From: Pseudomonadota bacterium
Lineage (GTDB): Bacteria > Pseudomonadota > Gammaproteobacteria > Burkholderiales > SG8-39
DNA: 64,000 nt
Assembly (NCBI GenBank): GCA_018241645.1
Contig: JAFEDL010000029.1
Coordinates: 36,389 to 100,388 of the forward strand
Reading direction: 5' to 3'
A program made the position numbers and the translations under genes. The first letter of the stretch is position 1. Each line of letters begins with the position of its first letter. Below are positions 20,896 through 45,595 of this stretch, in pieces. Under the pieces are notes generated by a model. It was given only the letters and a program-made list of their open reading frames with translations. It did no database searches and was not told the origin of the DNA.

Positions 20896-21399
20896 CTACT
20901 TGAGCCGGTAGGCGGCGTGGCAGGCCACGCAGGCCTGCGTAGTCACGGCAAGCGCGGCGAGGGCCGGCTTGAGGTCGCCGGTCGCCGAGGCGTTCTGCGC
21001 CTCCAGCGCAAACTTGCTCGCGCTTCGATGCATGGCGGTGCCGATGTCCTGCATCCCTTTCGGCATGAACTTCTCCACCTCGTGGGCGCCATGCAGCTTC
21101 AGCGAGCTCATCCCGAGGCGCTCTTCCGCGGTCCTGCCCGCGGCGTCGAACGCACCCTTTGAAAGGGCCTCCTGGATTTCCGCGACCGCAAGCAGGTGGT
21201 CCCGCATGTTGGCCAGCGTGTGCTCGCGCAGCATCGCCGGGAACCGGACCGGGACGCGCCCGTCCGCAGCGGGCTTTTGCGCCGCCGCCATGTGCATGGC
21301 GGGGTCGTGCTGGTGCTGCGCCGGGGCGGGAATGGCCGCGACGCACAGGCTGGTCCCGAGGATGCAGGCCACGATCGATCTGCGTACTTGCATGAACAC
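20896..21399 (-). CDS. Class II (cytochrome c-prime-like) c-type cytochrome with a His/Met-rich N-terminal segment
   Basis: Signal peptide, and a single C-terminal heme site CVACHAAYRLK as in four-helix-bundle class II cytochromes. The mature N-terminus reads QHQHDPAMHM. Confidence 0.6.
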   Translation of the reverse strand: MFMQVRRSIVACILGTSLCVAAIPAPAQHQHDPAMHMAAAQKPAADGRVPVRFPAMLREHTLANMRDHLLAVAEIQEALSKGAFDAAGRTAEERLGMSSLKLHGAHEVEKFMPKGMQDIGTAMHRSASKFALEAQNASATGDLKPALAALAVTTQACVACHAAYRLK

Positions 21400-21415
21400 T
21401 CTCCGGTAAACGACG

Positions 21416-22075
21416 TCAGGTGTAGAGCCCGGGCGAAGCCGCGAACACCTGACCGCAGTGCTTGGAACAAAACCAGTAAGTCTTGCCGCCGTGCTCGACC
21501 CTGGCGGCCGCGCTGTCGACGTCCACCTGCATGCGGCAGACCGGGTCGATTGCTATGGTTGCGCGGGCCTCGTCCGCCTGCACGAGCTCGAAGAGGTCCA
21601 CCGGATGGGCCACGTTCTTGAAATGCTGCTCGCCGAGCGGGCGGCAGTCCACGCCTGCAACCGCGGCAATTGCGCCGGCGATCGGCGCGGTGCACAGGAT
21701 CTGCTCGCCGGCGGCGTGCGACGTCAGCCGCGCGGTCAGGTTGATCGGCCCGCCGAACAGCCGTGCCTCGCGCTCCACGATCGGCCCGCGGTGGATGCCG
21801 GTGCTGACCCGCGGGAACCCCGGCTCGCGGCCCACCGCCTCGCGCAGGCGCAACGCGGTGCGCACCACCGCAAGCGTGTCCTCGCCGGCGCAGAACACCG
21901 AGTCGCCGATGCTGTCGACGATGCGCACGCCGGGCTCCAGGCTCGCCTCCACCAGCCGCACGAAGCGCAGGACCGTCTCGGAAGCCTGCAGCGCGCCGTG
22001 CGTCTCGGTCAGCGCCGTGTAGCCGCACAGGTCGGCCATCATCAGGGCAAGGTCGAGCTCGCGCGCTTCGCTCAT
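21416..22075 (-). CDS. Soluble class III adenylate/guanylate cyclase fused to a C-terminal YHS/TRASH metal-binding domain
   Basis: Cyclase motifs MMADLCGYTALTE, IGDSVFC and GGPINLTARL. The C-terminus reads IDPVCRMQVDVDSAAARVEHGGKTYWFCSKHCGQVF. Confidence 0.8.
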   Translation of the reverse strand: MSEARELDLALMMADLCGYTALTETHGALQASETVLRFVRLVEASLEPGVRIVDSIGDSVFCAGEDTLAVVRTALRLREAVGREPGFPRVSTGIHRGPIVEREARLFGGPINLTARLTSHAAGEQILCTAPIAGAIAAVAGVDCRPLGEQHFKNVAHPVDLFELVQADEARATIAIDPVCRMQVDVDSAAARVEHGGKTYWFCSKHCGQVFAASPGLYT

Positions 22076-22186
22076 CCCGGCCTGTCCGATAAATGTTTGA
22101 CTTTAATTTCTAGAGATTGGCTGCTGGAGCCGCTTCCAGGCCGGATGGATTGCCTTTTACGGAAATTATCATGGCGCAGTTGCGGA

Positions 22187-22588
22187 TCAACGCCGCGATC
22201 CTGGCCTGCCATCCGGGCGCCGCTCCAACCGCTCGACGACGAAGTCGCCGTCCTTGTTCGGCAGCCCGCCCATCTCGAATTCTATCTCGTCGCCCTTCTT
22301 TAGTCCTTCGAGCAGCCTCTTGTCGGCGACCGCAAAGCCCATTTGCATTGCGTCCATGCGCATCGAGGGGATCGGTTCATGCTTGAGCTCGAGATAGCCG
22401 TCAGGCGCACTTACCCCCGTCACTATGCCGCGACCTTTGTGCAGCACTGCGGCCGGTTTGGCTGTTTCCTGCCGTGGCACGATCGGGGCCTGGACGGGCT
22501 GCATTTCGTGCGTGGAAAAGCGGTAACCACCCACCGCGATGCCGGCGACCACTACGACAACAATGACAATGACCAACAGCGCTTTCAC
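22187..22588 (-). CDS. Membrane-anchored CusF-like copper-binding protein
   Basis: N-terminal TM segment, then LELKHEPIPSMRMDAMQMGFAV, which resembles the CusF H-x..-M-x-M site. Confidence 0.6.
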   Translation of the reverse strand: MKALLVIVIVVVVVAGIAVGGYRFSTHEMQPVQAPIVPRQETAKPAAVLHKGRGIVTGVSAPDGYLELKHEPIPSMRMDAMQMGFAVADKRLLEGLKKGDEIEFEMGGLPNKDGDFVVERLERRPDGRPGSRR

Positions 22589-22649
22589 GGGCTAGCCTCC
22601 ACCGGATAAAGAAAGGCCCGGGCCCCGCACAAGGCTCGTGGGCTCAAAA

Positions 22650-23429
22650 TCAGGTTTCTCCACGCTTCCAGAGCAATTCGTGCACTCGATGAAACCCGCT
22701 GAAACCCTTTAGACGGCAGACGCCCACCTGCCGCAGCGTGAATCCAGCCGATCCCAGTTCCTTGACCGCGTCCTCATCCAGGAAAACCCGATTGCGGTCC
22801 GGGATTTCAGTCAGGCGCTCTTCCCCGTCGACTTTCACGAATGCTTCATCAGGCACGCCCATCAACCGGAAGGCCTCGTTGATCACGGCTCCGTGGCGAG
22901 ACCCGCGCGAATCGAGCAGAATCTGCCCATAAGTAATTGCGGCCCTGACCTCAAGCATCGGGCCCGGGGCCATTTCCGGCGGGCGGTCTTGCAGGCCCCG
23001 CAACAGTTCGGTGGCCGCCCGCGCGGCGGCAGGGACCGAGGGAAACGCCATCATGCTCCCGTCTCCCGTATTTTCCACGAACGAAACGCCGTTTGACTTG
23101 CCCGCGGCGAGCGCGCGCCGTTCGAGTACGTTGCGCGCGCGCATTGCCAGTTCTTCCCCATGATGCGTCGCCAGCCAGGTCGAATTCACCAAATCGACCG
23201 CCAGGATCGACTCTACGGTCACTGCGGCCGGCGCGCGCTGCCAGCGCCGCCGGGACCAGGCGCGATGCGCGAGCACTCCGGCAACTGCAGCGCTCGCGCC
23301 TACCAGCACGTGCGACAGCCACTCGAGGAGCCAGTCCACCGGCAAGTGCACCGGCGGAATCATATCCGCCATGGCGCTTTGTGCCCCGAGCAAGCCGCCG
23401 ATCGCTACCACGGCAACTACTACGGGCAT
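22650..23429 (-). CDS. Membrane-anchored class III cyclase-homology-domain protein
   Basis: Start MPVVVAVVAIGG. Two TM segments, then AVDLVNSTWLAT...ENTGDGSMMAF. The upstream part of the 400-aa ORF overlaps the Prs-family gene and was discarded. Confidence 0.65.
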   Translation of the reverse strand: MPVVVAVVAIGGLLGAQSAMADMIPPVHLPVDWLLEWLSHVLVGASAAVAGVLAHRAWSRRRWQRAPAAVTVESILAVDLVNSTWLATHHGEELAMRARNVLERRALAAGKSNGVSFVENTGDGSMMAFPSVPAAARAATELLRGLQDRPPEMAPGPMLEVRAAITYGQILLDSRGSRHGAVINEAFRLMGVPDEAFVKVDGEERLTEIPDRNRVFLDEDAVKELGSAGFTLRQVGVCRLKGFSGFHRVHELLWKRGET

Positions 23430-23443
23430 CGGCTTGCGCGTAC

Positions 23444-24370
23444 TCACACGGCTGCCTTTCCGTCGATGGCCGGGGACGCGCCGTTGCCAAGCAGGCCCGC
23501 AACGGACGCGCAAAGCACCCCCTCGAGGGCAATGGCGTTCGTGGGGTGCGGAATGGTGTCGCAACTTACGACGCGACCGGCGCCGGCGGCGTGCAGCGCA
23601 TGGAGCGCGTCGCCGGCAAAGACCGCATGCACGGCAATGCACACCGGTGGCGCGAGGCCCGCCTCGCGCAGGTGGCGCACCGCCGCGATCATAGTGCGCG
23701 CCGTGGATACAATGTCGTCCACCAGTACCGGCGTGCGGCCGGCGAGCTTTGCCGGTTCCGGGACCGACACCTCCACGTCGCGGTCGCCGCGGCGCCGCTT
23801 GGCGAGCACGATGCTCGGTACGCCCGCGAGGGACGCTACTTCTTCCACCCACTGCGCGCTCTCCTGGTCCGGCCCGACCAGCACCGGTGCCGGGACGTTT
23901 TCACGCAGCCATGCGGCGATCACCGGTGCGGAATGCGCGGCGCGCGCGGGGATTGAGTAGAGCTCCGCCAGGTGCGCGAAGCGGTGCAGGTGCGGGTCGA
24001 CCGTGACCAGCCAGTCGAAGTGCAGCTCGATCCACTGCGCAAATACCTTCGCGCTCACGCATTCTCCCGGAGTAAATCGGGCGTCTTGGCGCATGTACGC
24101 GAGATACGGCGCAACCAACCCTACCCGCAAGGCGCCCGACTCCCTCGCGGCCGATGCCAGGAGCAAGAGCTGCGCGATTCGTCCATCCGGCCTGTCGAGC
24201 GTGCAGACCAGGATCGCGTCGCGACCGGAAACCGCAGTTTCGACGCGCACATACGACTCATCGTCCGGAAAGCGCCGCACGGTGCAAGCGCCACGCTCGG
24301 CCGACAACCGCGCCGAAAGCGCATCGGCCATCGCCTCGTTACCCGGGAATGCGAACACGACCGGCGTCAC
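23444..24370 (-). CDS. prs: Ribose-phosphate pyrophosphokinase-family protein
   Basis: 308 aa. VAPYLAYMRQD, VTVDPHLH, and the PRPP-binding loop VLVDDIVSTARTM. Confidence 0.85.
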   Translation of the reverse strand: MTPVVFAFPGNEAMADALSARLSAERGACTVRRFPDDESYVRVETAVSGRDAILVCTLDRPDGRIAQLLLLASAARESGALRVGLVAPYLAYMRQDARFTPGECVSAKVFAQWIELHFDWLVTVDPHLHRFAHLAELYSIPARAAHSAPVIAAWLRENVPAPVLVGPDQESAQWVEEVASLAGVPSIVLAKRRRGDRDVEVSVPEPAKLAGRTPVLVDDIVSTARTMIAAVRHLREAGLAPPVCIAVHAVFAGDALHALHAAGAGRVVSCDTIPHPTNAIALEGVLCASVAGLLGNGASPAIDGKAAV

Positions 24371-25884
24371 GAGTCCCGCTCCACATGAATCAGCATCGGA
24401 TGCGCCTTGACGTAAGCAAGCGCGTAGTCGAGTTCACCCGGTGAATCGGCGTGTAGCGTGAACAGGGGTTCGCCTCGGGCAATCCGCGCGCCGAGACGAA
24501 CGTGCAGGTCGATTCCAGCCCCCGGATCCCGCGGCGCTCCGGCGAGTTTTCCTGCCCGAGCGAGGCTGCGATTGTCTATGGAAATTACCGTACCGCCGTA
24601 CGCGGCGGGCCAGGGCCGCGTATGCGCTGCGTGGGGCAACTCGCGCAGCCCGCCTTGCGCCTCGCAGATGGCCTCGAACTTGCGCCATGCCGCACCACTG
24701 TCCAGAATTTGCCTCGCGCGCAAGATTCCCTTGTCGAATGGAGCCGCCGCGAGATGCTCGAGCAACGCACCGGCCAGGGCCAGCGCCCGCTCTCGAAGAT
24801 CCGCCGGCGCGGCGCGCTCGCCGCGCAGGACCTGCAGCACATCACGCGCTTCCAGTGCCGGCCCGATTCCACGACCGACCGGCTGCGTTCCGTCAGTGAC
24901 GATGATCTTTGCCAGGAGCCCGACCCGGGCAGCTACGTGCTCGAGCGTCTCACCCAGTGCGCGCGCCGCCGCCGGCGAGCGAACCTTGGCTGTCGGGCCG
25001 ACCGGAATGTCGATGATTGCGTGCGTCGATCCGGCCGCGACCTTCTTCGAAATGACCGAGGCAACGAGTTGCGCGCCGCTGTCCAGGTCCAGCGGCCGCT
25101 CCACGCGAATAAGGGCATCGTCCGCGGGGCTCAGCCCCACTGCACCACCCCATACAATGCAACCGCCCTCCCGCTCCACCACGCGGCGGATTGACGCGAG
25201 GTCAAGGTCGACGGGGGCAAGCGTTTCCATCGTGTCCGCCGTCCCAGCGGGCGACGTGATCGCCCGGGACGAAGTCTTGGGCATCGTCAGGCCGGCAGCG
25301 GCGAGGATCGGGACCACGATCAACGTCGTCCGATTGCCCGGAAGTCCACCGACGCAGTGCTTATCCGCAATCTTCTCGCCGCGCGGCCACGCCAGCCTGT
25401 CTCCCGAATCGATCATCGCCCGCGTGAGCCCGACGATCTCCTCACGATCAAGCCGCCCGCCGGCGCAGGCGGATACGAAAGCCGCGAGCTGGATATCGGC
25501 GTAGCGTCCCGCGGCGATATCCTCGACGATGGCCCGCAGGTCTGCGTCGCTGAGCCGCTCCCCGTACAGCTTGCCGCGCACCCGAGCCAATGATTCGATC
25601 AGCGGCATCGGCTCGACTTCCAAAAGCTCCCCGTCGCGCGCGCCGAACTTGCGCCACGCGCTTTCCGAAAGCCCCGCCTCGCCCGGCGAGACAATGGACG
25701 ATTCGACCACGTTAAGGGTCGCAATCAACTCCACGCCATTGCAGCGCAGAAGGACGCGCGACTGGGCGGCAAAGCCCTCGGACCGGCATACGTGGCAATC
25801 GCGATGCATGTAGACGACCGCTTCCTGGTAGGTGTCGATGCCAACCCGCTTTAGGCGAAGCGAATGGGAGCCATGACCGTTCAT
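24367..25884 (-). CDS. Thymidine phosphorylase-family protein, long form (AMP-phosphorylase-like N-terminal extension)
   Basis: Start MNGHGSHSLRLKRVGIDT. DKHCVGGLPGNRTT and SSRAITSPAGTADTME motifs. 4-nt overlaps with both neighbouring genes. Confidence 0.85.
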   Translation of the reverse strand: MNGHGSHSLRLKRVGIDTYQEAVVYMHRDCHVCRSEGFAAQSRVLLRCNGVELIATLNVVESSIVSPGEAGLSESAWRKFGARDGELLEVEPMPLIESLARVRGKLYGERLSDADLRAIVEDIAAGRYADIQLAAFVSACAGGRLDREEIVGLTRAMIDSGDRLAWPRGEKIADKHCVGGLPGNRTTLIVVPILAAAGLTMPKTSSRAITSPAGTADTMETLAPVDLDLASIRRVVEREGGCIVWGGAVGLSPADDALIRVERPLDLDSGAQLVASVISKKVAAGSTHAIIDIPVGPTAKVRSPAAARALGETLEHVAARVGLLAKIIVTDGTQPVGRGIGPALEARDVLQVLRGERAAPADLRERALALAGALLEHLAAAPFDKGILRARQILDSGAAWRKFEAICEAQGGLRELPHAAHTRPWPAAYGGTVISIDNRSLARAGKLAGAPRDPGAGIDLHVRLGARIARGEPLFTLHADSPGELDYALAYVKAHPMLIHVERDS

Positions 25885-27386
25885 GTCGCGTCCTTCGCGC
25901 CGGTCTCCCCGCCGTCCAACTCGACGCATTGCAGGTGCTCTGGAATATCGGCCTCCCATCCGAATTCGCGCTCGATACGCCGGCGCAGCGCGTCTGAGGC
26001 GGTCGGCTCGCCGTGCGTGACGAACGTTCGCCGAGGGGGCCGTCCGAACGTGCGCAGCCACGAGATGATTTCGCCAGCATCCGCGTGCGCCGAGAGGCTG
26101 TCGATATTGAGCACTTCCGCCCGAACCCGCACATCCTCGCCATGAATGCGGATCTCGCGCTCGCCAGCCACGAGGCGGGCACCGCGGGTGCCGCCGGCCT
26201 GATAGCCGGCAAAGAGAATGGTGTTCTTCGGATCGGGCGCAAAGGCTTTAAGGTGATGGAGCACCCTGCCGCCGGTGGCCATCCCGCTTGCCGAAATGAT
26301 CACCGCCGGATGCCTGATCCTGTTCAGGGCGCGGGACTCCTCGACCGAGCGCACAATCTTCGCCACGGTGCACATTCCTTTGCACTGTTCCGGAGAGAGC
26401 CGGTGCTCCGCGCGGTGACGATGGTAGACCGCGGTCGCGTCCGTCGCCATCGGGCTGTTCAGGAATACGGGGAGATCGGGAATCCTCCCGCTGGATTTGA
26501 GCCGCCACATGAAGTACATGAGCGCCTGGGCACGGCCCACCGCGAACGAGGGGACGACGACGATCCCGCCACGCGCCGCGGTGCGATTGATGACTTCCGC
26601 GAGCGCCGCCTCGGCATCTTCCGATGAATGCACCCTGTCGCCATATGTCGACTCGACCACCAAGTAATCTGCCTCGAGCCCGGTCGTGGGTGCTGACAGT
26701 ATCGCGTCGTTCGGTCGGCCGATGTCGCCGGAAAATAGGACTGTCCCGTCCTTGCAGGAGAGCCTAATGCATGACGCCCCAACCATATGCCCGGCTGGGT
26801 ACAACTGGACCTGCACGCCCGGCGCCAGATCGAAGGACTTGCCGAATTCAATGGCTCGAAAGCGCTTGAGCGCATTCTTCGCGTCGTCCTCGGAATACAG
26901 CGGCAATGCCGGGTGATGCTTCGAAAATCTCTTCCGGTTGGCGTACTGCGCTTCCTCCTCCTGCAGGCGTCCGCTATCCGGGAGCAGGATTTCCGCCAGT
27001 TCACGCGTCCCCTCGCTGCAAAAGACCGGCCCGCGAAATCCGTCGCGCACCAGCGCAGGCAAGTAACCACTATGGTCGAGATGCGCGTGCGTGAGAACCA
27101 CCGCGTCAATTCCTGACGGTGATACCGGAAATGGCGCCCAATTGCGCAAACGCAGCGGCTTGTAGCCTTGAAAGAGGCCGCAATCCACCAGTATCTTGTG
27201 CCCACCGGCTTCGACCAGGTACCGCGATCCGGTCACCGTTCCGCTCGCGCCGAGGAAAGAGATCCGCGTGCGGCCAGACTCGTCCCGCCCCAGGGTCACG
27301 TCATGGCCCTGCAATTCTTGTTGCCCCGTCTGTGGTGATAGATGCATTCGCTTACAGGGCCCTATCCATGACTTTTCATACGGCAT
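25881..27386 (-). CDS. MBL-fold metallo-hydrolase of the beta-CASP (RNA-specificity domain) family
   Basis: VLTHAHLDHSGYLP (HxHxDH) and C-terminal beta-CASP motifs (LSAHAD, VTHGE). The start may instead be ATG 27347. Confidence 0.8.
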   Translation of the reverse strand: MPYEKSWIGPCKRMHLSPQTGQQELQGHDVTLGRDESGRTRISFLGASGTVTGSRYLVEAGGHKILVDCGLFQGYKPLRLRNWAPFPVSPSGIDAVVLTHAHLDHSGYLPALVRDGFRGPVFCSEGTRELAEILLPDSGRLQEEEAQYANRKRFSKHHPALPLYSEDDAKNALKRFRAIEFGKSFDLAPGVQVQLYPAGHMVGASCIRLSCKDGTVLFSGDIGRPNDAILSAPTTGLEADYLVVESTYGDRVHSSEDAEAALAEVINRTAARGGIVVVPSFAVGRAQALMYFMWRLKSSGRIPDLPVFLNSPMATDATAVYHRHRAEHRLSPEQCKGMCTVAKIVRSVEESRALNRIRHPAVIISASGMATGGRVLHHLKAFAPDPKNTILFAGYQAGGTRGARLVAGEREIRIHGEDVRVRAEVLNIDSLSAHADAGEIISWLRTFGRPPRRTFVTHGEPTASDALRRRIEREFGWEADIPEHLQCVELDGGETGAKDAT

Positions 27387-27413: not shown

Positions 27414-29240
27414 TTAAGTAGGCCTTTCATCGTCCGCTCCTGGATCGTCCCTAAAATAGGGTGGCTGCCCATACAACAACCTGAACATGTTTTCGTTCCA
27501 CTGATCTGCGGCGCTCCTCCACAGGTCGAGCGTCCTCGCAATCTGGCTGCCGGCGGACTTTTCGAATTGCAGGAACGGATTCGCGGCATCCACCGGCTGA
27601 CGTTCGGCGCGCGCCTGAGCCACGAGCGGCGCAAGCGCAGCCATCCAGGGCGCCACGCGCTCGGAGAACGTATAGCGGGAGATTCGCATCGGGTGCAGCC
27701 ACTTCAGCCATGCCGCAGCCAGGGGGTTCACGGAAGCCCGCACCCAGGGGCTGACGAAACTCGCGTACGCCCATTCATTCCACTCGGAGACCGCCTTCAC
27801 CCGCTCGAATGAGTCGCGTGGATACTCGTAGCGGATGTCCTCGACGCGGCGCGCTTCGAACTGCACCTCATAGTGCGGCTTGCGGCAGTCCGGATTCCCG
27901 GTCGGATTGGAGATCTTCATCTGGTACAGACCCGGCGCGAGCGCCTCGATGTCCTCCAGGCTCTCCAGGATCGCGCGGTGCTCGAACCGCGCCACCTCCG
28001 CGGAGACGAAGATGCCGAGATGCCCGACATGGGGATTGAGGAGATACACGATGCGCTGTCCCGCGAGTTTGAGCTCCTCCGTGGACGGGTAGATTGCGGG
28101 CACCCAGTTCAGCGCCTGGTGGGGCGGCGTGATGTTGTCGCCCGAGGACGCGAATACCACGATTGGGTTGCGGATGCGCTTCAGGTCGGCGACGCAATGC
28201 TCGCAGATGCGCATCACGCCCTGCTCGAGCCTGTTCCCGACAAACAGGTTCTCGACAATGGCCACGATCTCCTCGCGGCCGAGGAAATAGTAGCCACTCC
28301 ACCAGCGCTCGAACTTGAGAAACCGCTCACGCTCGCCCTCTGGATCCGCCAGCACGGCATAGTTCTTTTCCCACAGGGCATGCGCCGGATTCAGGCCCTC
28401 GAAGTTCTGCGCCAGCCAGGCGCCATCGAACACGCCGCCGGACAGGTCGGCAGTCAGGTGCGAGAGCCAGGCACCGCCGAGCAGCCCGCCTGCGAGGCGC
28501 ATCGGGTTCACGTCCGACTCTCCGGCCCAGTACGACAGTGGCGATCCGTTCATCACAACCGGTCCGGCCAGACCCACGCAGTCGGCGGCCAGCAACGCGA
28601 CCACCCACCCTCCCTGGCAATTCCCGTACAGCACCGGCGCCTGGCCTGAATGGCGCTTGGCAACCTCGGCGACGAACCGGCGCAGAGCGTGATGCACGTC
28701 GGCCAGCGTCTGTCCCGGGCAAGGCTGCGGAAAGAAGGTCACGAAATACACCGGGTGGCCTTCGCGCAGCGCAATGCCGACTTCCGAGTCGTGCTTGAAG
28801 CCGCCGATGCCGGGGCCATGCCCGGCGCGCGGATCGACGATCATCACCGGCGGTTTCGATTCGTCTGGACACGTGTCGACGCACGGATCCCCGGCACCGG
28901 TGATCCTTAGCAGCGCGTAGTTCGCCGGAGCGTCAAACGTGCGCGCATCGAGGACCATCTCGTAGCGGAAGTCGAGCAACGGCGGCAGACCGGCCTGTTC
29001 GTGGTCGAGCATGTTGTTGGCGCGTTCGCGCAGGATGTCGAGGAAAAGCACGCTGCGCTGCCACAAGTCCTGCTGATAGCTCAGGGCATCGCCGGCCAAC
29101 CGTGCCGGTACAGCGGGCTCAACGCTTTCCTGTTGGCGGAGTGACGGCGATTCCGGTTGCAGGGCCGCTACGCCGGGCCGGGCTCTCGCCACTTTTTTCT
29201 TCAGGGCACGTTGCATGGTTCTCTCCGCATACGCTCGCAT
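27414..29240 (-). CDS. DUF3141-domain protein (alpha/beta-hydrolase-like, often annotated as a PHA-synthase-related protein)
   Basis: 608 aa. The family call is by recollection of the DUF3141 N-terminal pattern (YQQDLWQRSVLFLDILRERANNM...) and a GNCQGGW nucleophile-elbow-like motif. Confidence 0.65.
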   Translation of the reverse strand: MRAYAERTMQRALKKKVARARPGVAALQPESPSLRQQESVEPAVPARLAGDALSYQQDLWQRSVLFLDILRERANNMLDHEQAGLPPLLDFRYEMVLDARTFDAPANYALLRITGAGDPCVDTCPDESKPPVMIVDPRAGHGPGIGGFKHDSEVGIALREGHPVYFVTFFPQPCPGQTLADVHHALRRFVAEVAKRHSGQAPVLYGNCQGGWVVALLAADCVGLAGPVVMNGSPLSYWAGESDVNPMRLAGGLLGGAWLSHLTADLSGGVFDGAWLAQNFEGLNPAHALWEKNYAVLADPEGERERFLKFERWWSGYYFLGREEIVAIVENLFVGNRLEQGVMRICEHCVADLKRIRNPIVVFASSGDNITPPHQALNWVPAIYPSTEELKLAGQRIVYLLNPHVGHLGIFVSAEVARFEHRAILESLEDIEALAPGLYQMKISNPTGNPDCRKPHYEVQFEARRVEDIRYEYPRDSFERVKAVSEWNEWAYASFVSPWVRASVNPLAAAWLKWLHPMRISRYTFSERVAPWMAALAPLVAQARAERQPVDAANPFLQFEKSAGSQIARTLDLWRSAADQWNENMFRLLYGQPPYFRDDPGADDERPT

Positions 29241-35077: not shown

Positions 35078-37252
<2,175 letters not shown>

Positions 37253-37311: not shown

Positions 37312-37800
37312 CTATTGCTTCATCCCCGCAGCGATCCGGCGATGCAGTTTTGCAAGTCCCCGGTTTTCCTCCGCGGCCTGCGCGTAGAGACGCACCAGAC
37401 TCTCGCATCGCTCCCAGAATCCTGTGCTGCCCAAGGTGTCCCGCGCGTTCGCCATACGATCGGATTGGGGTCTTGAAGCCCATTGATCATAGTGCTCGCC
37501 CATTCCGCGATGCCGTTCGGCGCTCTCTTCGGCTTCCTTCGCCTCCTTGTCGTACCAGACGGCCAGCGCCTCATGGTCCGCCGGTGAATTCGCCGTCGCG
37601 ATTCGTTGCTCGATCTGCTGCCGTCGCTGCATCGCCTCGGTGGCACACCCGCTCATTGCACCCGCCAGCAGCAGACAGAGAGCAATCCCTACGGATCGCC
37701 TCGCGTTCAACCGCCAGCGGACGGAAGCGACCTTTGCATCGGTCTCGGTTCGATTCGCGTTTCCAATTTCGTCCATTCCCGGCTCCTTTGCGTCGACCAA
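37312..37800 (-). CDS. Lipoprotein, paralog 3
   Basis: Lipobox AMSGC. IEQRIATANSPADHEALAVWYDKEA...AERHRGM ... CESLVRLYAQAAEENRGLAKLHRRIAAGMKQ. Confidence 0.55.
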   Translation of the reverse strand: MVDAKEPGMDEIGNANRTETDAKVASVRWRLNARRSVGIALCLLLAGAMSGCATEAMQRRQQIEQRIATANSPADHEALAVWYDKEAKEAEESAERHRGMGEHYDQWASRPQSDRMANARDTLGSTGFWERCESLVRLYAQAAEENRGLAKLHRRIAAGMKQ

Positions 37801-39031: not shown

Positions 39032-42000
39032 GGCCGATTCCTCCGCCGCGCGCGCTCAAGGCCGAACTCCTTGACCAGTCCGTAGATCGCGGGGATCACG
39101 ATCAGGGTCAGGAGGGTCGAGGAAATCATTCCGCCCACCATCGGCGCCGCAATGCGGCGCATCGTTTCGGATCCGGTGCCGCTGCCCCACATGATCGGGA
39201 GCAGGCCGGCCATGATGGCCACTACCGTCATCATTTTCGGCCGCACGCGATCCACCGCACCCTCCATCACCGCTTCGTACAGATCGGCGACGGTCGGCGT
39301 CTTGCCTTCGGTGGCGCGCTTTGCCCTGATGGCCTCCCAGGCGTGGTCGAGATAGATCAGCATCACCACCCCGGTCTCCGCAGCGACGCCGGCGAGCGCG
39401 ATGAAACCCACGGCCACCGCGACGCTTACGTTGTAGTCGAGCAGCCACATCAGCCAGACGCCGCCGACGAGCGAAAACGGCACCGAAAGCATGACGATCA
39501 GCGTTTCCGTCAGGCGTCGGAAGTTCAGGTACAGCAGCAGGAAGATGATCGTCAGGGTCAGCGGGACCACGATGACGAGCTTTTCCTTCGCCCGCTCCAT
39601 GTACTCGAACTGGCCGCTCCAGGTGGCATAGTAGCCAGGGGGAAACTGCACCTGTTCGCGCACCGCCTTTTGCGCGTCGGCCACGTAACCGCCGATGTCC
39701 CGATCGCGGATGTCCACGAAGATGTACGCGGCCAGCAGCGCGTTTTCGGTGCGTATGGCCGGGGGCGCCTGCGTCAGGCTGACGCGGGCGAGCTGTCCCA
39801 GAGGGATCATCGCGCCGTTCATGATCGGCACCAGGACCTGCGTGGAGATGCCCTGTGGATCCTGACGCAACTCGCGCGGATAGCGCACGATCACGCCGTA
39901 GCGCTCGAGACCTTCCACCGTGGTGGTCACCATTTCACCCCCTAGCGCCGTGCCGATGACCTCCTGCAGTTCGCCCACGCCCAGGCCATAACGCGCCAAG
40001 GCCAGCCGGTCGGGTTCGATGTCGAGGTAATACCCGCCCGTGACTCGCTCGGCATACGCGCTGGTGGTCCCGGGAACAGCCTTCACGACCGATTCGATTG
40101 TTTTGGCGAGTTTTTCGATCTCGGCCAGGCTTTTGCCGTAGACCTTGATTCCGATCGGGGTTCGGATGCCGGTCGCGAGCATGTCGATGCGGCCCTTGAT
40201 GGGCATCGTCCATGCGTTGGAGACCCCGGGAATCTGGACCGCCTTGTCCATCTCCGCGATCAGCTTGTCCACGGTCATGCCCGGGCGCCATTCGCTTTGC
40301 GGCTTGAGGTTGATGACGGTTTCGGACATCTCGAGCGGCGCGGGGTCGGTCGCAGTCCCGGCGCGGCCGGCTTTGCCGAAAACCGAGGCGACCTCGGGAA
40401 ACGTCTTGAGGATCTTGTCCTGGGTCTGCAACAGCTCACCGGCCTTGGTGACCGACATCGAGGGCAGCGAGGCCGGCATGTACAGCAGGGTTCCTTCGTT
40501 CAGCACCGGCATGAACTCGCTGCCCAGCCGCATTGCGGGGTAGGCCGACAGGCCCAACGCAAGGATGGCGGCGGCGATGGTGAGTTTCTTCCGGCGCATC
40601 ACCCCCTCGATCACTGGGCGGTAGATCCAGATCAGGAAGCGATTAACCGGGTTCTTCTTCTCCGGCATGATCCTGCCGCGTATGAACAGCAGCATCAGCA
40701 CCGGTACCAGCGTGATCGACAAGAGCGCCGCCCCCGCCATGGAAAACGTCTTGGTGTAGGCGAGCGGCTTGAACATCCTGCCTTCCTGCGCTTCGAGCGT
40801 GAACACCGGCAGGAACGAGACGGTGATGATCAGGAGGCTGAAGAACAGCGCGGGCCCCACTTCCCGGCAGGCGTCGATCACGATCGGCAGGCGCGGCGCG
40901 TCCGGCGGCGCCCGCTCCAGGTGCTTGTGCGCGTTCTCGATCATGACGATGGCCGCATCCACCATGGCGCCGATGGCGATGGCGATGCCCCCCAGGCTCA
41001 TGATGTTCGAGTTGAGCCCCATCCAGTGCATTGCGATCAGCGCCATGAGCACGCCGACCGGCAGCATGACGATCGCCACTAGGGCGCTGCGCGCATGCAT
41101 CAGGAACACGACGCACACCAGCGCAACGATCACGCTTTCCTCGATCAGGGTGCGCGTCAGGTTGCCGATCGCGCGGTGGATCAGGTCGGACCGGTCGTAC
41201 ACGGTCTGCAGCGACACGCCCTTGGGAAGTCCGGCGGAGATTTCCGCGAGCCTGGCTTTGACGTTGTGGATGACATCGAGCGCGTTCTGGCCGTAGCGTG
41301 CGACGACGATGCCGGCAACCACCTCCCCTTCGCCGTTCAGTTCCGTGATCCCGCGGCGCTCGTCCGGCCCGAGTTCGACTTTTGCCACGTCGCGGATCAG
41401 CACCGGCACGCCCTTGTCCGCCTTGACGACCAGATTCTCGATGTCGGTTACACCGCGCAGATAGCCCCGGCCGCGCACGACGAACTCGGTCTCCGCCAGT
41501 TCGATGACGCGGCCGCCCACGTCCCGGTTGCTCGCGCGAATCACTTCGGCGACCTTGTTCAGGGGGATTCCGTAGGCCTGCAGCTTGCGCGGCTCGACGA
41601 TCACCTGGTATTGCTTCACGAAGCCGCCCACGCTCGCCACTTCCGCCACGCCCTGCGCCTTGGTGAGTTGGTAGCGCACAAACCAGTCCTGAATGGTGCG
41701 CAACTCGGCGAGGGTGTGCTGAGCAGCGACCACGGCGTACTGGTACACCCAGCCGACCCCGGTGGCGTCCGGACCGAGGCTGGGGCGGACCCCTTGCGGC
41801 ATCTGTCCCGATGCGAAATTGAGATATTCCAGTACCCGCGTGCGCGCCCAGTAGATGTCGGTGCCGTCCTCGAAGATGACGTAGATGAAGGAGGCGCCGA
41901 ACACCGAGAGCCCCCGCACCACCTTCGATTTGGGCACCGCCAGCATGGCCGTGCTCAGCGGATAGGTGATCTGGTCCTCCACCACCTGCGGCGCCTGGCC

Positions 42001-42162
42001 CGGGTACTCGGTGTAGATGATCACCTGCACGTCCGACAGGTCCGGAATCGCATCCAGCGGCGTACGCATCACCGCATAGATCCCGGTTGCGACGATGAAA
42101 AGCGTGCCCAGAAGCACCAGAAACACGTTGCGGACCGACCAGGCGATGATGCGTTCGAGCAT
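39028..42162 (-). CDS. cusA: Heavy-metal efflux RND pump, CusA family
   Basis: 1044 aa. The N-terminus MLERIIAWSVRNVFLVLLGTLF and overall HME-RND architecture. Confidence 0.95.
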   Translation of the reverse strand: MLERIIAWSVRNVFLVLLGTLFIVATGIYAVMRTPLDAIPDLSDVQVIIYTEYPGQAPQVVEDQITYPLSTAMLAVPKSKVVRGLSVFGASFIYVIFEDGTDIYWARTRVLEYLNFASGQMPQGVRPSLGPDATGVGWVYQYAVVAAQHTLAELRTIQDWFVRYQLTKAQGVAEVASVGGFVKQYQVIVEPRKLQAYGIPLNKVAEVIRASNRDVGGRVIELAETEFVVRGRGYLRGVTDIENLVVKADKGVPVLIRDVAKVELGPDERRGITELNGEGEVVAGIVVARYGQNALDVIHNVKARLAEISAGLPKGVSLQTVYDRSDLIHRAIGNLTRTLIEESVIVALVCVVFLMHARSALVAIVMLPVGVLMALIAMHWMGLNSNIMSLGGIAIAIGAMVDAAIVMIENAHKHLERAPPDAPRLPIVIDACREVGPALFFSLLIITVSFLPVFTLEAQEGRMFKPLAYTKTFSMAGAALLSITLVPVLMLLFIRGRIMPEKKNPVNRFLIWIYRPVIEGVMRRKKLTIAAAILALGLSAYPAMRLGSEFMPVLNEGTLLYMPASLPSMSVTKAGELLQTQDKILKTFPEVASVFGKAGRAGTATDPAPLEMSETVINLKPQSEWRPGMTVDKLIAEMDKAVQIPGVSNAWTMPIKGRIDMLATGIRTPIGIKVYGKSLAEIEKLAKTIESVVKAVPGTTSAYAERVTGGYYLDIEPDRLALARYGLGVGELQEVIGTALGGEMVTTTVEGLERYGVIVRYPRELRQDPQGISTQVLVPIMNGAMIPLGQLARVSLTQAPPAIRTENALLAAYIFVDIRDRDIGGYVADAQKAVREQVQFPPGYYATWSGQFEYMERAKEKLVIVVPLTLTIIFLLLYLNFRRLTETLIVMLSVPFSLVGGVWLMWLLDYNVSVAVAVGFIALAGVAAETGVVMLIYLDHAWEAIRAKRATEGKTPTVADLYEAVMEGAVDRVRPKMMTVVAIMAGLLPIMWGSGTGSETMRRIAAPMVGGMISSTLLTLIVIPAIYGLVKEFGLERARRRNRP

Positions 42163-42163: not shown

Positions 42164-43738
42164 TCAGTGCGCTCCGTGGCCGCCGGCTGAGGGTTGGATG
42201 CTCACGATCAGGAACTCCCCCTTGCCCGCATCGATGAATTCGAACGCAATCTTCTGGCCCGGTTTCAGCGCCCGAAGCAGTGCCGGATCCTTGACGCGGA
42301 ATTCCATGGACATGGCCGGCCATTTGAGGCTGGCGACCGGCCCGTGCGCAAGCGTGACGCTGCCGTTGGCGAGATCCAGTGCTTCGACACCGCCCTCGGC
42401 CCGGTGCACCGCCGACCCGCCTGCCGCTGCGCCGGCGTCGGCTTTGGCGCCGTGCGTGCCATGGCCAAATCCACCGAGCGCCGCCTTGAGATTGCTCTCT
42501 GCATCGATCAGGAAATTGGCGCTCACGACAACCGCTTCGCCCGCCTTTACGCCTTCCAGAACTTCGACGTAGCCATCGGCGCGCGACCCGAGTTTCACGG
42601 CGCGTGGGTCGAAGCGGCCGCCGCCGAGGTCGACGAGCACGACCTGACGCGTACCAGTGTCGAGCACCGCCGAATCCGGCACGGCCAGCACCTTCGCTTT
42701 GCCGCGGCTCGACGCGATCTCCACCCTCGCGTACATCGCGGGCTTGAGCAGGCCCTGCCCGTTGGCCAGTTCGATGCGGACCCTGGCGGTGCGGGTTTCC
42801 GGGGCCACCGTCGGGTAGATGAACGTGATCCTGCCGTTGAACTGCTTCTCCGGATATGCATCGACCTTGATGGCGGCCGCATCGCCGGGCCGCACCGTCG
42901 CGAGGTCCTGCTCGAACACGTCCGCCAGAACCCATACACTGGAGAGGTCGGCGATCTGGTACAGCACCTCCCCGGCCATGAAGCGTTTACCCTGGATGGA
43001 AGGCTTCTCGAGCACCACGCCGGTCGCGGACGAGCGCAGGGTGACGAATTGCCTCGCCTTGCCTTCCTGCTGCAACAGCTTCAGTTCGGCCTCCGAGATG
43101 TCCCAGTTGCGCAACCGCTGCAGCGCGCCCTCGACCAGTCGCTGCATGCCGGCCCGGACTTCCGGCCCGCCCTCGGCGACCGACTGCAGGCCTTTCCAGG
43201 CGATCAGGTATTCCTGCTGCGCCGTGATCAGGTCGGGGCTGTAGACATCCATCAGGGCGTCGCCCTTCCTGACCGCCTGGCCGGTCGTGTTGACGTATAG
43301 GCGCTCGATCCAGCCATCGAACCGGGGCGCCACCGTATGCAGGCGCCGCTCGTCGGCCTGCACGGTCGACACCGCCCTGACCGTGCGGGTCAGCTCACGC
43401 AGCGCGGCGGCTTCCGTCCTTACGCCCAGTTTTTGCACCTTTTCGACGCTGATCTTCACCGCCGCGCCATCCGACGCTGGCTCTTCGCCCTCGTACACCG
43501 GGGTGTAGTCCATGCCCATCGGGTCCTTTTTCGGCGCCGGCGAAGTGTCGGGCAGGCCCATCGGGTTGCGGTAGTAAAGAATCTTGCGCTCGGCCTTGAC
43601 CTCCGCCGCCGGCGGCGCTCCAACCTGTTCCCGAGCGGTGCCGGAGTGCGCCGGCTGGTTCGAACCCCACCAATAGCCCACACCGGAAGCCGCGGCTGCC
43701 ACGACGACCAGGGTAGCTGCGGTCGCTGTCCACTTCAT
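42164..43738 (-). CDS. cusB: Cu(I)/Ag(I) efflux periplasmic adaptor CusB with a C-terminal CusF-like domain (SilB-like)
   Basis: N-terminal Met motif YYRNPMGLPDTSPAPKKDPMGMDYTPV. The C-terminal 80 aa contain LAHGPVASLKWPAMSMEFRV. Confidence 0.9.
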   Translation of the reverse strand: MKWTATAATLVVVAAAASGVGYWWGSNQPAHSGTAREQVGAPPAAEVKAERKILYYRNPMGLPDTSPAPKKDPMGMDYTPVYEGEEPASDGAAVKISVEKVQKLGVRTEAAALRELTRTVRAVSTVQADERRLHTVAPRFDGWIERLYVNTTGQAVRKGDALMDVYSPDLITAQQEYLIAWKGLQSVAEGGPEVRAGMQRLVEGALQRLRNWDISEAELKLLQQEGKARQFVTLRSSATGVVLEKPSIQGKRFMAGEVLYQIADLSSVWVLADVFEQDLATVRPGDAAAIKVDAYPEKQFNGRITFIYPTVAPETRTARVRIELANGQGLLKPAMYARVEIASSRGKAKVLAVPDSAVLDTGTRQVVLVDLGGGRFDPRAVKLGSRADGYVEVLEGVKAGEAVVVSANFLIDAESNLKAALGGFGHGTHGAKADAGAAAGGSAVHRAEGGVEALDLANGSVTLAHGPVASLKWPAMSMEFRVKDPALLRALKPGQKIAFEFIDAGKGEFLIVSIQPSAGGHGAH

Positions 43739-43787
43739 AGTCTTCTCCAGATGCTTGGATGCCGTGCGTTTGGAAACAACGAGCCGA

Positions 43788-45122
43788 TCAAAGGCCGGAC
43801 TTGCCGGTCAGAAATTCCATCTCCGCGAGCGCCTTGTTGTAGCTCGAAAGCGCCGATGCGTGGCTGATCTCGTAATTGAGAACCGTCATCTGGCTGTCGA
43901 GCAGCGTGAGGAAATCGACCCGATTGACGCGGTAGGCGGCAAGCGACGATTCCACCGCGAGCCGCGCCTGAGGCAGGACGCCCGTCTCGTAAAGTCGCGC
44001 CGACTTCAGGCTCTGCTCGGCGTTGGCCGCCTGCTGACGCAGCCTCGAGACCAGCTCATTGCGCTGCGCCTCGTACATGTCCGATGCCTGATCGCGCATT
44101 GCGATCGCCTCCGCAACCCGGGGATCGCGCTTGGTCTCGCGCCAGACCGGCAGGTTGATCGCGACGGTAAAGCTCACCATATCGTCGCGGCGCATTCCTT
44201 CCAGCGTCCTGTCCCTCTGGCCGTAGGAAAGCTTGACGTCGAAATCCGGGTAGTAGTCCTTGCGCGCCAGGTCGAGGGTCCTTGCGCTGCGCTCGACCAG
44301 GCTCTTCAGCCCAAGGAGCTGCGGACGCTCCCTGAGGGCGGTTTCGAGCAGCGTATCCAGTTGCAGCGGCGCCTCCCTCAGGCGCAACGCGGCCGGCGCG
44401 GGCACGCCGGCCGAGGGTGCACGGCCGAGCACGCGCGTCAGTTCCGCCTCTATCGTCCGGCGTTCGCGCGCCAGCTTGATCAGTTCGTCCGTCATTCTCG
44501 ACAGCTGGGTCTGCGCCTTGAGCACGTCCGCCTGCGTTCCCTGGCCGACCCCGTATCGCGATTCGGAGATTTGCAGGAATTGCTCGAGCACCTGCCTGTT
44601 CCGTTCCACCACACGCGCCGACTCCACGCTCAGCGCGAGCTCGAAATACGCGACCTTCACGTCGCGCAGCACGCGGTTGACGGTTTCCTGGTAGGCATAG
44701 CCGATCGATTCGGCGTCCTTGGCGGCCACGTCCTGCCTCAGGTCGCGCTTGCCGGGGTAGGGAATCCTCTGCGACAGACCGAGCATTTTCATGGTCATGT
44801 CCTCGCGCCTGAAGGGTTGCGAGGCCAGCGGCGCGTTGATCACCCCGGCCTCGAGCATCGGGTCGTCGAGCGCCCCGGCCGGCAATACGCGCTGCTGCGC
44901 CGCCAAGCGCTCGTTCCCCGCAGCGCGGATTTCAGGGCTGTTGCGCGCAGCCTCGGAAAGGAGTTCCTGTAATTGCGCTTCGCGCGGGAACTCCGGTGCT
45001 GCGCTCACGCCGGCCGGCGTTGCCGCGAACAGTAGCACTCCGATCAGGGCGAACTTGAACCGATCTTCGTAACGGGTATGGCAATGGCTCATCTGGATCT
45101 CCCAAAAGAACTCGCGCCGCAA
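43788..45122 (-). CDS. cusC: Outer-membrane efflux factor (TolC family), CusC-like
   Basis: 444 aa with the two-repeat OEP architecture. The start may be a downstream Met. Confidence 0.85.
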   Translation of the reverse strand: MRREFFWEIQMSHCHTRYEDRFKFALIGVLLFAATPAGVSAAPEFPREAQLQELLSEAARNSPEIRAAGNERLAAQQRVLPAGALDDPMLEAGVINAPLASQPFRREDMTMKMLGLSQRIPYPGKRDLRQDVAAKDAESIGYAYQETVNRVLRDVKVAYFELALSVESARVVERNRQVLEQFLQISESRYGVGQGTQADVLKAQTQLSRMTDELIKLARERRTIEAELTRVLGRAPSAGVPAPAALRLREAPLQLDTLLETALRERPQLLGLKSLVERSARTLDLARKDYYPDFDVKLSYGQRDRTLEGMRRDDMVSFTVAINLPVWRETKRDPRVAEAIAMRDQASDMYEAQRNELVSRLRQQAANAEQSLKSARLYETGVLPQARLAVESSLAAYRVNRVDFLTLLDSQMTVLNYEISHASALSSYNKALAEMEFLTGKSGL

Positions 45123-45176
45123 TGTGCGCGCGAGCGGACAACGCGCGGCCGCAAGCCGGCCGCGCAGCCCGGGAGA

Positions 45177-45548
45177 TCAGACTTGGAAGGACTGGAGCAG
45201 GATGCGTCTTGGGGGACCGATCCCGAGCGCACGGTCCGAAATGTATGCGACGACGGCATACGGCACCGGATCGGGCTGCACCACGAGCGTCAGTATCGGC
45301 GCCGAAGGCATTGCGGGAACATCCATCGTCACCTTCTGCACTGCCTGCCGATCCGACAGGCAGTGCGCGAGGCAAGCCGCGCCGAACCCGGAATCGTGGC
45401 AGGGAGCGACTTCGGCCGCCGCCAGCACTGCGCGGTCCGGCGAGTTCTCGAGCCAGTCGCAAGCAGACAGGGCCATCACGCCTTGCGCGAACAGCATCAG
45501 CGCAAGCATGATCCGCGCGATCAGGAGGCGGTGTAGGCGGAAACCCAT
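45177..45548 (-). CDS. Small Cys/His-containing exported protein heading the cus array (DUF2946/CzcI-like?)
   Basis: N-terminal TM/signal segment, then SACDW, PCHDSGFGAACLAHC. The family is uncertain. The start may be Met14, given the promoter geometry. Confidence 0.4.
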   Translation of the reverse strand: MGFRLHRLLIARIMLALMLFAQGVMALSACDWLENSPDRAVLAAAEVAPCHDSGFGAACLAHCLSDRQAVQKVTMDVPAMPSAPILTLVVQPDPVPYAVVAYISDRALGIGPPRRILLQSFQV

Positions 45549-45554
45549 TTGGTA

Positions 45555-45595
45555 ATTCTAAGCATTCCGCCCGATGCGAGGTTGATTTAGATCAA
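45555..45595 (-). promoter_or_regulatory. Class II FNR/CRP-family-type promoter: perfect box TTGATTTAGATCAA plus -10 TAGAAT
   Basis: The box lies at 45582..45595 inside the 18-bp palindrome GGTTGATTTAGATCAACC. TAGAAT lies on the minus strand at 45560..45555, 21 nt from the box. Confidence 0.5.

Follow-up and report, generated by a model that had tools for sequence, protein, structure and literature searches.

We propose that an atypical F-type ATPase has been joined, at the level of the operon, to the CusCBA copper-efflux system, and that the two act together in copper defence. The proposal concerns a stretch of 64,000 nucleotides, referred to here as the window, from contig JAFEDL010000029.1 (positions 36,389 to 100,388, assembly GCA_018241645.1) of a Pseudomonadota bacterium placed in the Burkholderiales lineage SG8-39. 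Within it, 26 consecutive minus-strand genes run from 45548 to 20896 and bring cusCBA together with atpDCQBEFAG, an ATPase operon whose beta subunit begins with a YHS domain. The reading that we favour, and to which we give a little better than an even chance, is that this operon-level fusion is the conserved core of the array: the ATPase would be a proton pump co-expressed with CusCBA, and its YHS domain a copper sensor. The ATPase probably belongs to the copper-defence machinery. An initial annotation of the window had tied an N-ATPase to copper stress and had seen its operon continue into a nucleotide-metabolism and cyclase block. The tie gains from a recurrent linkage to copper genes and from a predicted FNR-type promoter; the N-ATPase identity did not survive, and the nucleotide block is not conserved.

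Genes were delimited by GC3-guided calling of open reading frames (ORFs) and inspection of start codons in sequence of about 65% GC. All 26 co-directional ORFs of the initial annotation are present and its spacings were reproduced: the largest gap is 111 nt (22076-22186), cusA overlaps ccdA by 4 nt, lipoprotein 1 overlaps the BNR gene by 4 nt, and 31 nt separate ccdA from copG, 5 nt lipoprotein 2 from atpD, and 28 nt atpG from lipoprotein 1. The copG to lipoprotein 3 spacing is the proposed 12 nt if lipoprotein 3 starts at a TTG (37800), and 36 nt if it starts at an ATG (37776), which has the better Shine-Dalgarno sequence. In order of transcription, the small gene g01 is followed by cusC-cusB-cusA-ccdA-copG, lipoproteins 3 and 2, atpDCQBEFAG, lipoprotein 1, the BNR gene, and a tail that begins with a DUF3141 gene. 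Pfam or NCBIfam models support 21 of the 26 genes, the weakest being a cytochrome c'-like gene with a Pfam match below the curated cut-off. We infer that the array is co-transcribed, which would make a single transcript of 24.6 kb. The genes of the proposed core are these:

43788-45092, minus strand: cusC, outer-membrane factor (PF02321 OEP, E 1e-43)
42164-43738, minus strand: cusB adaptor with a C-terminal CusF domain (HlyD_D23, E 1e-78; CusF_Ec, E 9e-27, residues 445-516)
39028-42162, minus strand: cusA, Cu(I)/Ag(I) permease of the resistance-nodulation-division (RND) type (1246 bits to E. coli CusA structures)
35481-37001, minus strand: atpD, F1 beta subunit of 506 aa including the YHS module (Pfam/NCBIfam)
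35074-35484, minus strand: atpC, epsilon subunit (Pfam/NCBIfam)
34790-35077, minus strand: atpQ, gene-1 family (PF09527, E 6e-10; TIGR02230, 40.2 bits against a cut-off of 46.7)
34097-34786, minus strand: atpB, a subunit, with the essential Arg in LAVRLFGN (NF009954, 348.7 bits, cut-off 272)
33824-34093, minus strand: atpE, c subunit, with a single Glu (IESLAIY) and Met at the Gln-ligand position (sequence comparison)
33024-33773, minus strand: atpF, b subunit of 249 aa with a delta/OSCP-like C-terminus (PF00430 and PF00213; TIGR03321 best match, below cut-off)
31571-33037, minus strand: atpA, alpha subunit (NF009884, 681 bits, cut-off 554)
30705-31574, minus strand: atpG, gamma subunit (PF00231)

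The efflux system is of the Cus type. Alignment of CusA to structures 3T51 and 3K07 shows the Met triad M573, M623 and M672 to be conserved, so that the permease has the three-Met Cu(I) site, and a cognate membrane fusion protein (HlyD_D23/CusB) and outer-membrane factor (OEP) are encoded alongside.

Evidence for a conserved core comes from 160 loci around AtpD relatives, taken from species-representative genomes and metagenomes, onto which homologues of all window proteins were mapped. Relatives with a YHS domain adjoin cusCBA, copper P-type ATPases or both in Burkholderiaceae, Rhodocyclaceae, Gallionellaceae, Oxalobacteraceae and gammaproteobacterial metagenome-assembled genomes (MAGs). The association with copper therefore recurs across families and is not specific to one strain, as the initial annotation had allowed that it might be. 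For a test of enrichment, removal of duplicates left 109 loci with at least 5 kb of flank outside the atp genes, 22 of them with the YHS domain and 87 without. Any copper marker lies within 10 kb at 16 of the 22 YHS-bearing loci versus 10 of the 87 others (Fisher p 3e-8), and a cus-type cusA at 12/22 versus 5/87 (Fisher p 8e-7), values that overstate independence because the copper-linked loci form one super-clade in a neighbour-joining tree of AtpD.

The distance from the cusA stop to the start of the YHS-bearing atpD is 2 nt in a Rhodocyclales MAG (L006), 23 nt in a Gallionellaceae MAG (L009) and 25 nt in a metagenome contig (L084), with a Shine-Dalgarno sequence in the spacer of the latter two. 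Because cusA and atpD abut at 2-25 nt elsewhere, we regard the cusCBA-atpDCQBEFAG fusion as the conserved core, of which the ccdA-copG-lipoprotein insert in the window appears to be one variant. The closest relative (L161, on the same contig stretch as L001) has CopK, g01, cusC, a cusB-CusF gene, cusA, ccdA, DUF411, one lipoprotein and the atp operon. In Noviherbaspirillum agri (L162), cusCBA, cytochrome c, HMA and DUF305 genes stand upstream of the ATPase, whose operon is permuted and has DUF411, DsbD_N, a YHS-HMBD P-type ATPase and DUF2933 at its far side. This permutation, with atpG first (G-D-C-Q-B-E-F-A) and a YHS-bearing beta subunit, occurs at L162 (9135-15437) and on a 655-kb metagenome contig (L163, 9138-15408). 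Elsewhere, the cus cluster is divergently oriented to the YHS ATPase (L088), and P-type ATPase, DUF2933 or ICMT genes lie downstream of the ATPase (L003, L006-L010). One gammaproteobacterial MAG has a nuo operon upstream and a stand-alone YHS protein and a double-YHS P-type ATPase downstream.

The super-clade consists of the main YHS-bearing clade and an adjacent, YHS-less clade of Gallionellaceae/Nitrosomonadales that is also cus-linked; inside the main clade, L014 has lost the YHS domain and kept cus. Since the YHS-less sister clade shares the linkage, the function of the ATPase itself would be the partner of Cus, and the existence of cus-linked relatives without the domain suggests that Cus and the ATPase were first partners in energy supply and that YHS was added later as a regulator. 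Further, the linkage outlasts inversion (L088), permutation (L162) and differing intervening genes, which argues for selection over inertia.

Non-Cus RND systems also lie co-directionally near YHS-less ATPases, mostly upstream (L173, 1-18016, Sulfuricella pSCD; L060, L073, L079, L071, L074, L023 and L050). Ten RND permeases, seven of them on the same strand, make up the raw count in 914 kb of flank around YHS-less ATPases. These are weak hints of a wider RND-ATPase partnership on the Sulfuricella plasmid and in several MAGs. At L167 (10001-11940), YHS-atpD and atpC are followed by a pyridine-nucleotide oxidoreductase and pyruvate:ferredoxin oxidoreductase (PFOR) in place of the Fo genes, a split or remnant operon.

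The second line of evidence is the module on the beta subunit, which the initial annotation had recognised and whose match is real, if just under the Pfam cut-off:

36882-37001, minus strand: YHS/TRASH module, AtpD residues 1-40, ligands D4/C7/C30/C34 (PF04945, 29.6 bits)

A YHS/TRASH ligand set comprises one Asp (or Cys) and three Cys in the arrangement C-x(19-24)-C-x3-C, and the AtpD N-terminus, which reads MVIDPVCGM...FFFCSVDC, has it intact with an Asp and three Cys. The N-terminal D-P-x-C...C-x3-C motif was found in 69 of the 120 nearest AtpD clusters at 90% identity, its first part being D(68)/E(1)-P-x-C, and most AtpD relatives carry a precomputed PF04945 match. Across an alignment of 51 relatives, P5, C7, F29, C30 and C34 do not vary at all, conservation of D4 is 90% or more, and the residues between them are variable. 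An AlphaFold2 model of AtpD residues 1-160, with predicted local distance difference test scores of 83-91, has two hairpins and a helix (32-51) that runs into the crown beta-barrel; beyond residue 160 the model is of low confidence and was not used. Among solved F1 beta subunits, none covers AtpD residues 1-50. An apparent YHS domain on the canonical N-ATPase of a Roseicitreum plasmid (match H30, aligning from residue 7) was rejected, as the translation has stop codons there.

In Mycobacterium phlei, 1-10 uM Cu switches on an adenylyl cyclase through its YHS domain (Linder 2015, PMC4626032). We propose that the YHS module of AtpD is a copper sensor because this cyclase is copper-activated and a probable homologue of it stands at the far end of the array. 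The contexts of YHS listed in PMC4626032 are P-type ATPases, cyclases, toluene hydroxylase, a permease and L24e; a rotary ATPase is absent from them.

The third line of evidence lies at the head of the array:

45555-45595, minus strand: predicted class II promoter of the FNR/Dnr/FixK type, with the box TTGATCTAAATCAA at 45595-45582 and the -10 hexamer TAGAAT at 45560-45555

Class II promoters of this type have TTGAT-N4-ATCAA centred near -41.5 and a -10 hexamer. The box here is perfect (45582-45595) and is centred 40.5 nt upstream of the first ATG, so its spacing to TAGAAT fits a class II promoter if transcription starts at or near that ATG. At up to one mismatch, five TTGAT-N4-ATCAA boxes occur in the window against 0.63 expected. 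In locus L001, the closest relative, a perfect box stands equally far from the g01 homologue, and another FNR box precedes the lipoprotein-BNR genes. The predicted promoter at the array head fits the suggestion of the initial annotation that the relevant stress is copper without oxygen, and it is why we take low oxygen to be the relevant condition in this organism.

The four further boxes in the window have one mismatch each (9423-9436, 19114-19127, 46320-46333 and 49285-49298); one is just upstream of OsmC and another precedes the second CopK gene by about 70 nt. A Crp/Fnr-family regulator is encoded at 17473-18138 on the plus strand; it keeps the E--SR recognition helix and lacks the N-terminal FNR cysteine cluster. 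From these signals, the whole island may form one regulon responding to low oxygen, or to NO or a cyclic nucleotide. Three proteins with cyclase homology are encoded in the window, at 21416-22075 (with a C-terminal YHS), 22650-23429 (degenerate, with a hydrophobic N-terminus) and 14109-15560 (plus strand, 483 aa). The Crp/Fnr regulator is of the cyclic-nucleotide-binding kind, and a route from copper through a cyclic nucleotide and a Crp-family protein to the TTGAT-N4-ATCAA promoters is conceivable.

The enzyme is an atypical F-type ATPase, presumably a second copy beside a typical one. It carries every part of a working rotary pump, with both the stator Arg of subunit a and the P-loop of beta present. 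The initial annotation had called it an N-ATPase. According to Dibrova, Galperin and Mulkidjanian (2010), such enzymes are defined by the gene order atpDCQRBEFAG, by atpR, and by Na+ ligands in the c subunit with a Glu in both helices. The window operon has the beta-first order D-C-Q-B-E-F-A-G, an AtpQ and no separate delta gene. Two defining features are absent, and the label does not stand. The first is atpR: the operon gave no AtpR or TIGR03165 match, and there is no room for the gene, because atpC and atpQ overlap by 4 nt and only 3 nt separate atpQ from atpB. The second is the Na+ ligand set, which was not found in the c subunit; this has one Glu, none in helix 1, Met at the Gln/Glu ligand position, and ESLxxY rather than ESTxxY. 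The same departure of the c subunit from N-ATPases has been noted in Ferrigenium. The NCBIfam alt_F1F0 models TIGR03305, TIGR03324, TIGR03321, TIGR03323 and TIGR03322 are top or second matches, all below their cut-offs, and the a and alpha subunits exceed the cut-offs of other PRK models.

The enzyme is an AtpR-less, N-ATPase-like F-type ATPase that probably translocates protons. Its c subunit has a site of the H+ type rather than a Na+ site, which makes protons the likely ion, and the closest solved c ring is the H+-binding c15 ring of Spirulina. The c subunit is near-identical across all relatives, copper-linked or not, and no clade-specific positions were found in the a, Q, epsilon and b subunits of the copper-linked clade. 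With the same ion site and no clade-specific substitutions, we conclude that the coupling ion is unchanged; a change of ion in the copper-linked clade was considered and rejected on these grounds. The family occurs in many Nitrospira, Gallionellaceae and Nitrosomonas genomes, in Acidithiobacillus, and on Legionella and Sulfuricella plasmids. On the Roseicitreum plasmid (L172, 8186-18632), genes of an arginine deiminase pathway and an acid-resistance gene, HdeD, directly precede a canonical N-ATPase with AtpQ and a subunit I gene; a Crp/Fnr regulator is encoded close by.

If the parts are put together, the ATPase would hydrolyse ATP to pump protons, sustaining the proton-motive force on which the CusA antiporter draws at times when respiration falls short. 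The three YHS modules on the F1 crown, by analogy with the cyclase, would bind copper and act as sensors that tune the enzyme. A stricter form of the idea is a copper-gated rotary motor, in which Cu(I) on YHS switches ATP hydrolysis on or off and so powers Cus as copper rises and respiration fails; we regard this as a tentative, rather unlikely elaboration.

Several points tell against the fusion of efflux and ATPase as a copper-defence unit. The housekeeping F1Fo could in principle serve just as well. One capture in an ancestor, or a few, is likely, and capture followed by inheritance could explain much of the linkage. YHS-bearing ATPases outside the super-clade (L096, L097, L099, L108 and L168) have no copper genes nearby; that of L168, in Nitrospiria, is flanked by USP and PFOR genes. 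A YHS domain need not imply a copper island. At L163 and L166 only a CusS-like kinase or DUF2933 is nearby. The PF04945 score of the window AtpD (29.6 bits) falls just under the gathering threshold of 30.3, and its ligand set could bind Zn or be structural. Scans for sigma-70 promoters and terminators inside the array gave results at or below shuffle expectation and are uninformative at 65% GC, so that internal promoters are neither supported nor excluded.

The absence of copper genes beside most ATPase relatives invites a different explanation, unlikely in our estimation, in which the ATPase belongs to low oxygen or energy stress. It would be a general ion pump, driven by ATP and serving anoxic or dormant states, like its YHS-less relatives in Nitrospira, Gallionella, Legionella plasmids and elsewhere, and it would share the island and the FNR regulon with the copper genes because of the greater toxicity of copper without oxygen. 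The YHS domain would then bind Zn, be structural or sense something else. FNR boxes ahead of OsmC, CopK and the cus head are consistent with such a module, as are the USP and PFOR genes of L168, a Legionella plasmid locus with phbB and an alpha/beta hydrolase, phosphotransacetylase (PTA) and acetate kinase beside DUF3141 in the closest relative, and the canonical N-ATPase of L172 with its arginine deiminase pathway and Crp/Fnr regulator. The lxa locus of Burkholderia cenocepacia holds similar hypoxia genes, namely an RNase, polyhydroxyalkanoate (PHA) genes, acetate kinase and PTA. Yet a low-oxygen module leaves unexplained why cusA and atpD abut (2-25 nt) in lineages without FNR boxes and why D/C/C/C is conserved in the copper-linked clade, and the YHS domains of neighbouring genes sit on copper P-type ATPases.

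Island mosaicism, which we consider improbable, would make the atp operon a mobile cassette in a metal-resistance island, its co-direction and tight spacing arising from streamlining or hitch-hiking with no coupling. Lateral transfer of N-ATPase-type operons has been described (PMC2881411), members of the family are found on plasmids, neighbours vary between loci, and the 26-gene packing is unique to the window among the loci seen. But the linkage holds across families and through permutation and inversion, the catalytic subunit itself carries a fused metal-binding module, and the 2-nt spacing of cusA and atpD implies co-transcription and translational coupling.

It is more doubtful still that the YHS domain of beta serves to buffer or dock copper, by which abundant F1 heads sequester cytoplasmic Cu(I) or pass it to CopA or Cus via chaperones. 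Three YHS modules per enzyme and the frequency of stand-alone YHS proteins and YHS-P-type ATPases among the neighbours would suit a buffer, but buffering would not explain its attachment to a complete rotary ATPase with strongly conserved other subunits. Export of Cu(I) or Ag(I) through the c ring, suggested by Met residues at or beside the ion site (AMGRA, LAMIESLAIY), is hardly credible, as all 160 relatives have the same c subunit, including those without a copper context, the a subunit has no clade-specific changes, and the site retains the carboxylate typical of H+/Na+ binding.

The fusion of CusCBA and ATPase does not extend to the genes that follow atpG, which are these:

30284-30676, minus strand: lipoprotein 1, with homologues in L001 and L002, paralogue of lipoproteins 2 and 3
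29325-30287, minus strand: BNR/sortilin-like protein of the F510_1955 family (NF045728, 181.8 bits, cut-off 175)
27414-29240, minus strand: DUF3141 alpha/beta-hydrolase-like protein (PF11339, E 7e-206)
25881-27386, minus strand: MBL/beta-CASP ribonuclease-like protein (Pfam/NCBIfam)
24367-25884, minus strand: archaeal-type thymidine/AMP-phosphorylase family (NF003338, 680 bits, cut-off 434; TIGR03327 AMP_phos, 479 bits, cut-off 535)
23444-24370, minus strand: ribose-phosphate diphosphokinase subfamily (NF005537, 416 bits, cut-off 322)
22650-23429, minus strand: g23, hydrophobic N-terminus and degenerate cyclase-homology domain (BLASTP E 5e-6 to the g25 cyclase domain)
22187-22588, minus strand: CusF-like protein (PF11604, E 3e-17)
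21416-22075, minus strand: g25, class III cyclase-like protein of 219 aa with a C-terminal YHS (AC-YHS; YHS E 5e-10, residues 176-218)
20896-21393, minus strand: cytochrome c'-like protein with a C-terminal CxxCH, the last gene of the array (PF01322, weak, E 1e-3)

The CusF-like gene and the YHS-cyclase of the initial annotation are both there; the Guanylate_cyc match of g25 is weak (16.6 bits against a cut-off of 21.9), and g23 had no Pfam match, even in a permissive search. The nucleotide-metabolism and cyclase block as a continuation of the ATPase fared otherwise: it stands behind atpG in 0 of 160 related loci. A conserved partnership between the ATPase and the DUF3141, RNase, phosphorylase and phosphoribosyl pyrophosphate (PRPP) synthetase genes was rejected, since only pieces occur, in L112, L140, L092 and L143. 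In the closest relative, HD-domain and MFS/acyltransferase genes break the array after atpG, PTA and acetate kinase precede DUF3141, and the RNase is 8.6 kb further on. An RNase gene lies near the ATPase in L092 and L143. At L112 (6479-9625), a phosphorylase and a PRPP-synthetase-like gene are directly upstream of a YHS-less atpD, and at L140 a phosphorylase lies downstream of atpG (about 16270), which makes a second, rare linkage of these nucleotide genes to the ATPase. Pelomicrobium (L170) has DUF2933, ICMT, a thiolase, an HMA-P-type ATPase, DUF3141, an MFS transporter and cusCBA in one run, and on a Legionella plasmid a 597-aa alpha/beta hydrolase, phbB and ICMT-DUF2933 surround the ATPase. 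The BNR, DUF3141, RNase, phosphorylase and PRPP synthetase genes of the window are best seen as separate low-oxygen or stress modules that appear to have been packed behind the ATPase in this strain. A correspondence of the ATPase and nucleotide block to the B. cenocepacia lxa locus was considered and dropped, as the published gene table has no F-type ATPase.

The remaining genes of the array accompany the efflux block:

45177-45548, minus strand: g01, small Cys-rich protein of 123 aa preceding cusC, with homologues upstream of cusC in L001 (67% identity) and L005
38294-39031, minus strand: ccdA/DsbD-type thiol-disulfide transporter (PF02683); the gene and its 4-nt overlap with cusA recur in L161
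37813-38262, minus strand: copG (DUF411), with the motif CGCCGEW (PF04214, E 4e-26)
37312-37776, minus strand: lipoprotein 3, with a lipobox, paralogue of lipoprotein 1 (35% identity, E 2e-20)
37007-37252, minus strand: lipoprotein 2, truncated paralogue of 81 aa (48% identity to the N-terminal half of lipoprotein 1), its stop 5 nt before atpD

Permissive Pfam searches gave no match for g01 and nothing usable for the three lipoproteins. The lipoprotein family (motif ADHxEIA...ERHR) brackets the ATPase on both sides, and locus L002 (4876-7700) has six copies of it in tandem, placed between cusA and copG. Scans for Rfam families and tRNAs were negative, an exact-protein lookup with the window AtpD gave no match, and in a megablast search against plasmids cusA was the sole match, at 70-76% identity.

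The array is part of a larger metal island. On one side, it is flanked by two CopK genes, a DUF2933-ICMT pair, two P-type ATPases, CusF, a multicopper oxidase, a further outer-membrane factor and a MerR regulator, and on the other by a thiolase, OsmC and the Crp/Fnr-family regulator. The CopK paralogues, 88 aa each, lie upstream of the array at 45769-46035 and 48952-49218. The pair of DUF2933 and ICMT-family methyltransferase genes (48004-48921) recurs beside the ATPase family and copper P-type ATPases at L003, L006, L010, L023, L027, L030, L053, L117, L170 and L171, which include a Legionella pneumophila conjugative plasmid. Two unannotated proteins, at 46731-47105 (124 aa) and 51650-52102 (150 aa), have homologues adjoining copper P-type ATPases in L011 and L083. 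Outside the copper island, a 448-aa protein (7257-8603, minus strand) has weak matches to multihaem cytochromes (c554, MtrC-like).

We found no description, in open-access full text, of a link between N-ATPases or F-type ATPases and copper or heavy metals, although absence there is not proof, and the same literature yielded no description of a YHS-bearing ATPase beta subunit. To our knowledge, no physiological role has been agreed for N-type and other alternative F-ATPases; a copper-efflux-linked clade with a metal-sensor domain would give them a concrete and testable function. The general proton-motive force is assumed to power RND efflux, and a pump-specific, ATP-driven source of protons would be a new element of metal, and possibly drug, resistance under anoxia. 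The reach of YHS/TRASH would extend from P-type ATPases and cyclases to rotary ATPases. Were the copper-gated motor to prove true, it would be the first F-type ATPase to be controlled directly by a transition metal, and an RND efflux operon would encode its own dedicated power supply. The fusion of YHS to beta is widespread (69/120 nearest clusters), and at least one carrier, Noviherbaspirillum agri, is a named species and not a MAG; if in culture, it would permit experiments.

Known systems resemble parts of this arrangement. Like N-ATPases, the window operon has beta first, AtpQ (PF09527), no separate delta gene and a long b subunit with an OSCP-like C-terminus; 'alternate F1F0' models are best or near-best, and both occur on plasmids and islands. 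Unlike them, it is without AtpR and the Na+ motif, scores under the alt_F1F0 cut-offs, has YHS on beta and is fused to cusCBA. The B. cenocepacia lxa locus (Sass 2013, PMC3721108) shares an upstream Anr/FNR-like motif, a metal-dependent RNase, PHA-related enzymes and a cation ATPase, together with acetate kinase and PTA, as found beside DUF3141 in the closest relative of the window, whereas its gene table has neither an F-type ATPase nor cus genes. The YHS-cyclase of M. phlei appears to be matched in architecture by g25, whose 219 aa fall within the reported 216-473 aa (PMC4626032). Like AtpD, it fuses an Asp and three-Cys YHS module to an ATP-using enzyme; in AtpD the module is N-terminal and sits on a multisubunit rotary motor, whereas copper activation is known for the cyclase only.

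Cupriavidus-type cop islands (C. metallidurans pMOL30, with CopK, CopG and a CopF-type P-ATPase) are comparable in gene content; the window likewise has two CopK, CopG/DUF411, P-type Cu ATPases, a multicopper oxidase, CusF and a MerR regulator. We know of no rotary ATPase in such clusters. E. coli CusCFBA shares with the array the order of outer-membrane factor, membrane fusion protein and RND permease, the Met triad and the presence of a CusF domain. In the array, by contrast, CusF is fused to the C-terminus of CusB, there is no adjacent CusRS and the predicted promoter is of the FNR type, and cusA is followed by ccdA, copG, lipoproteins and an ATPase operon.

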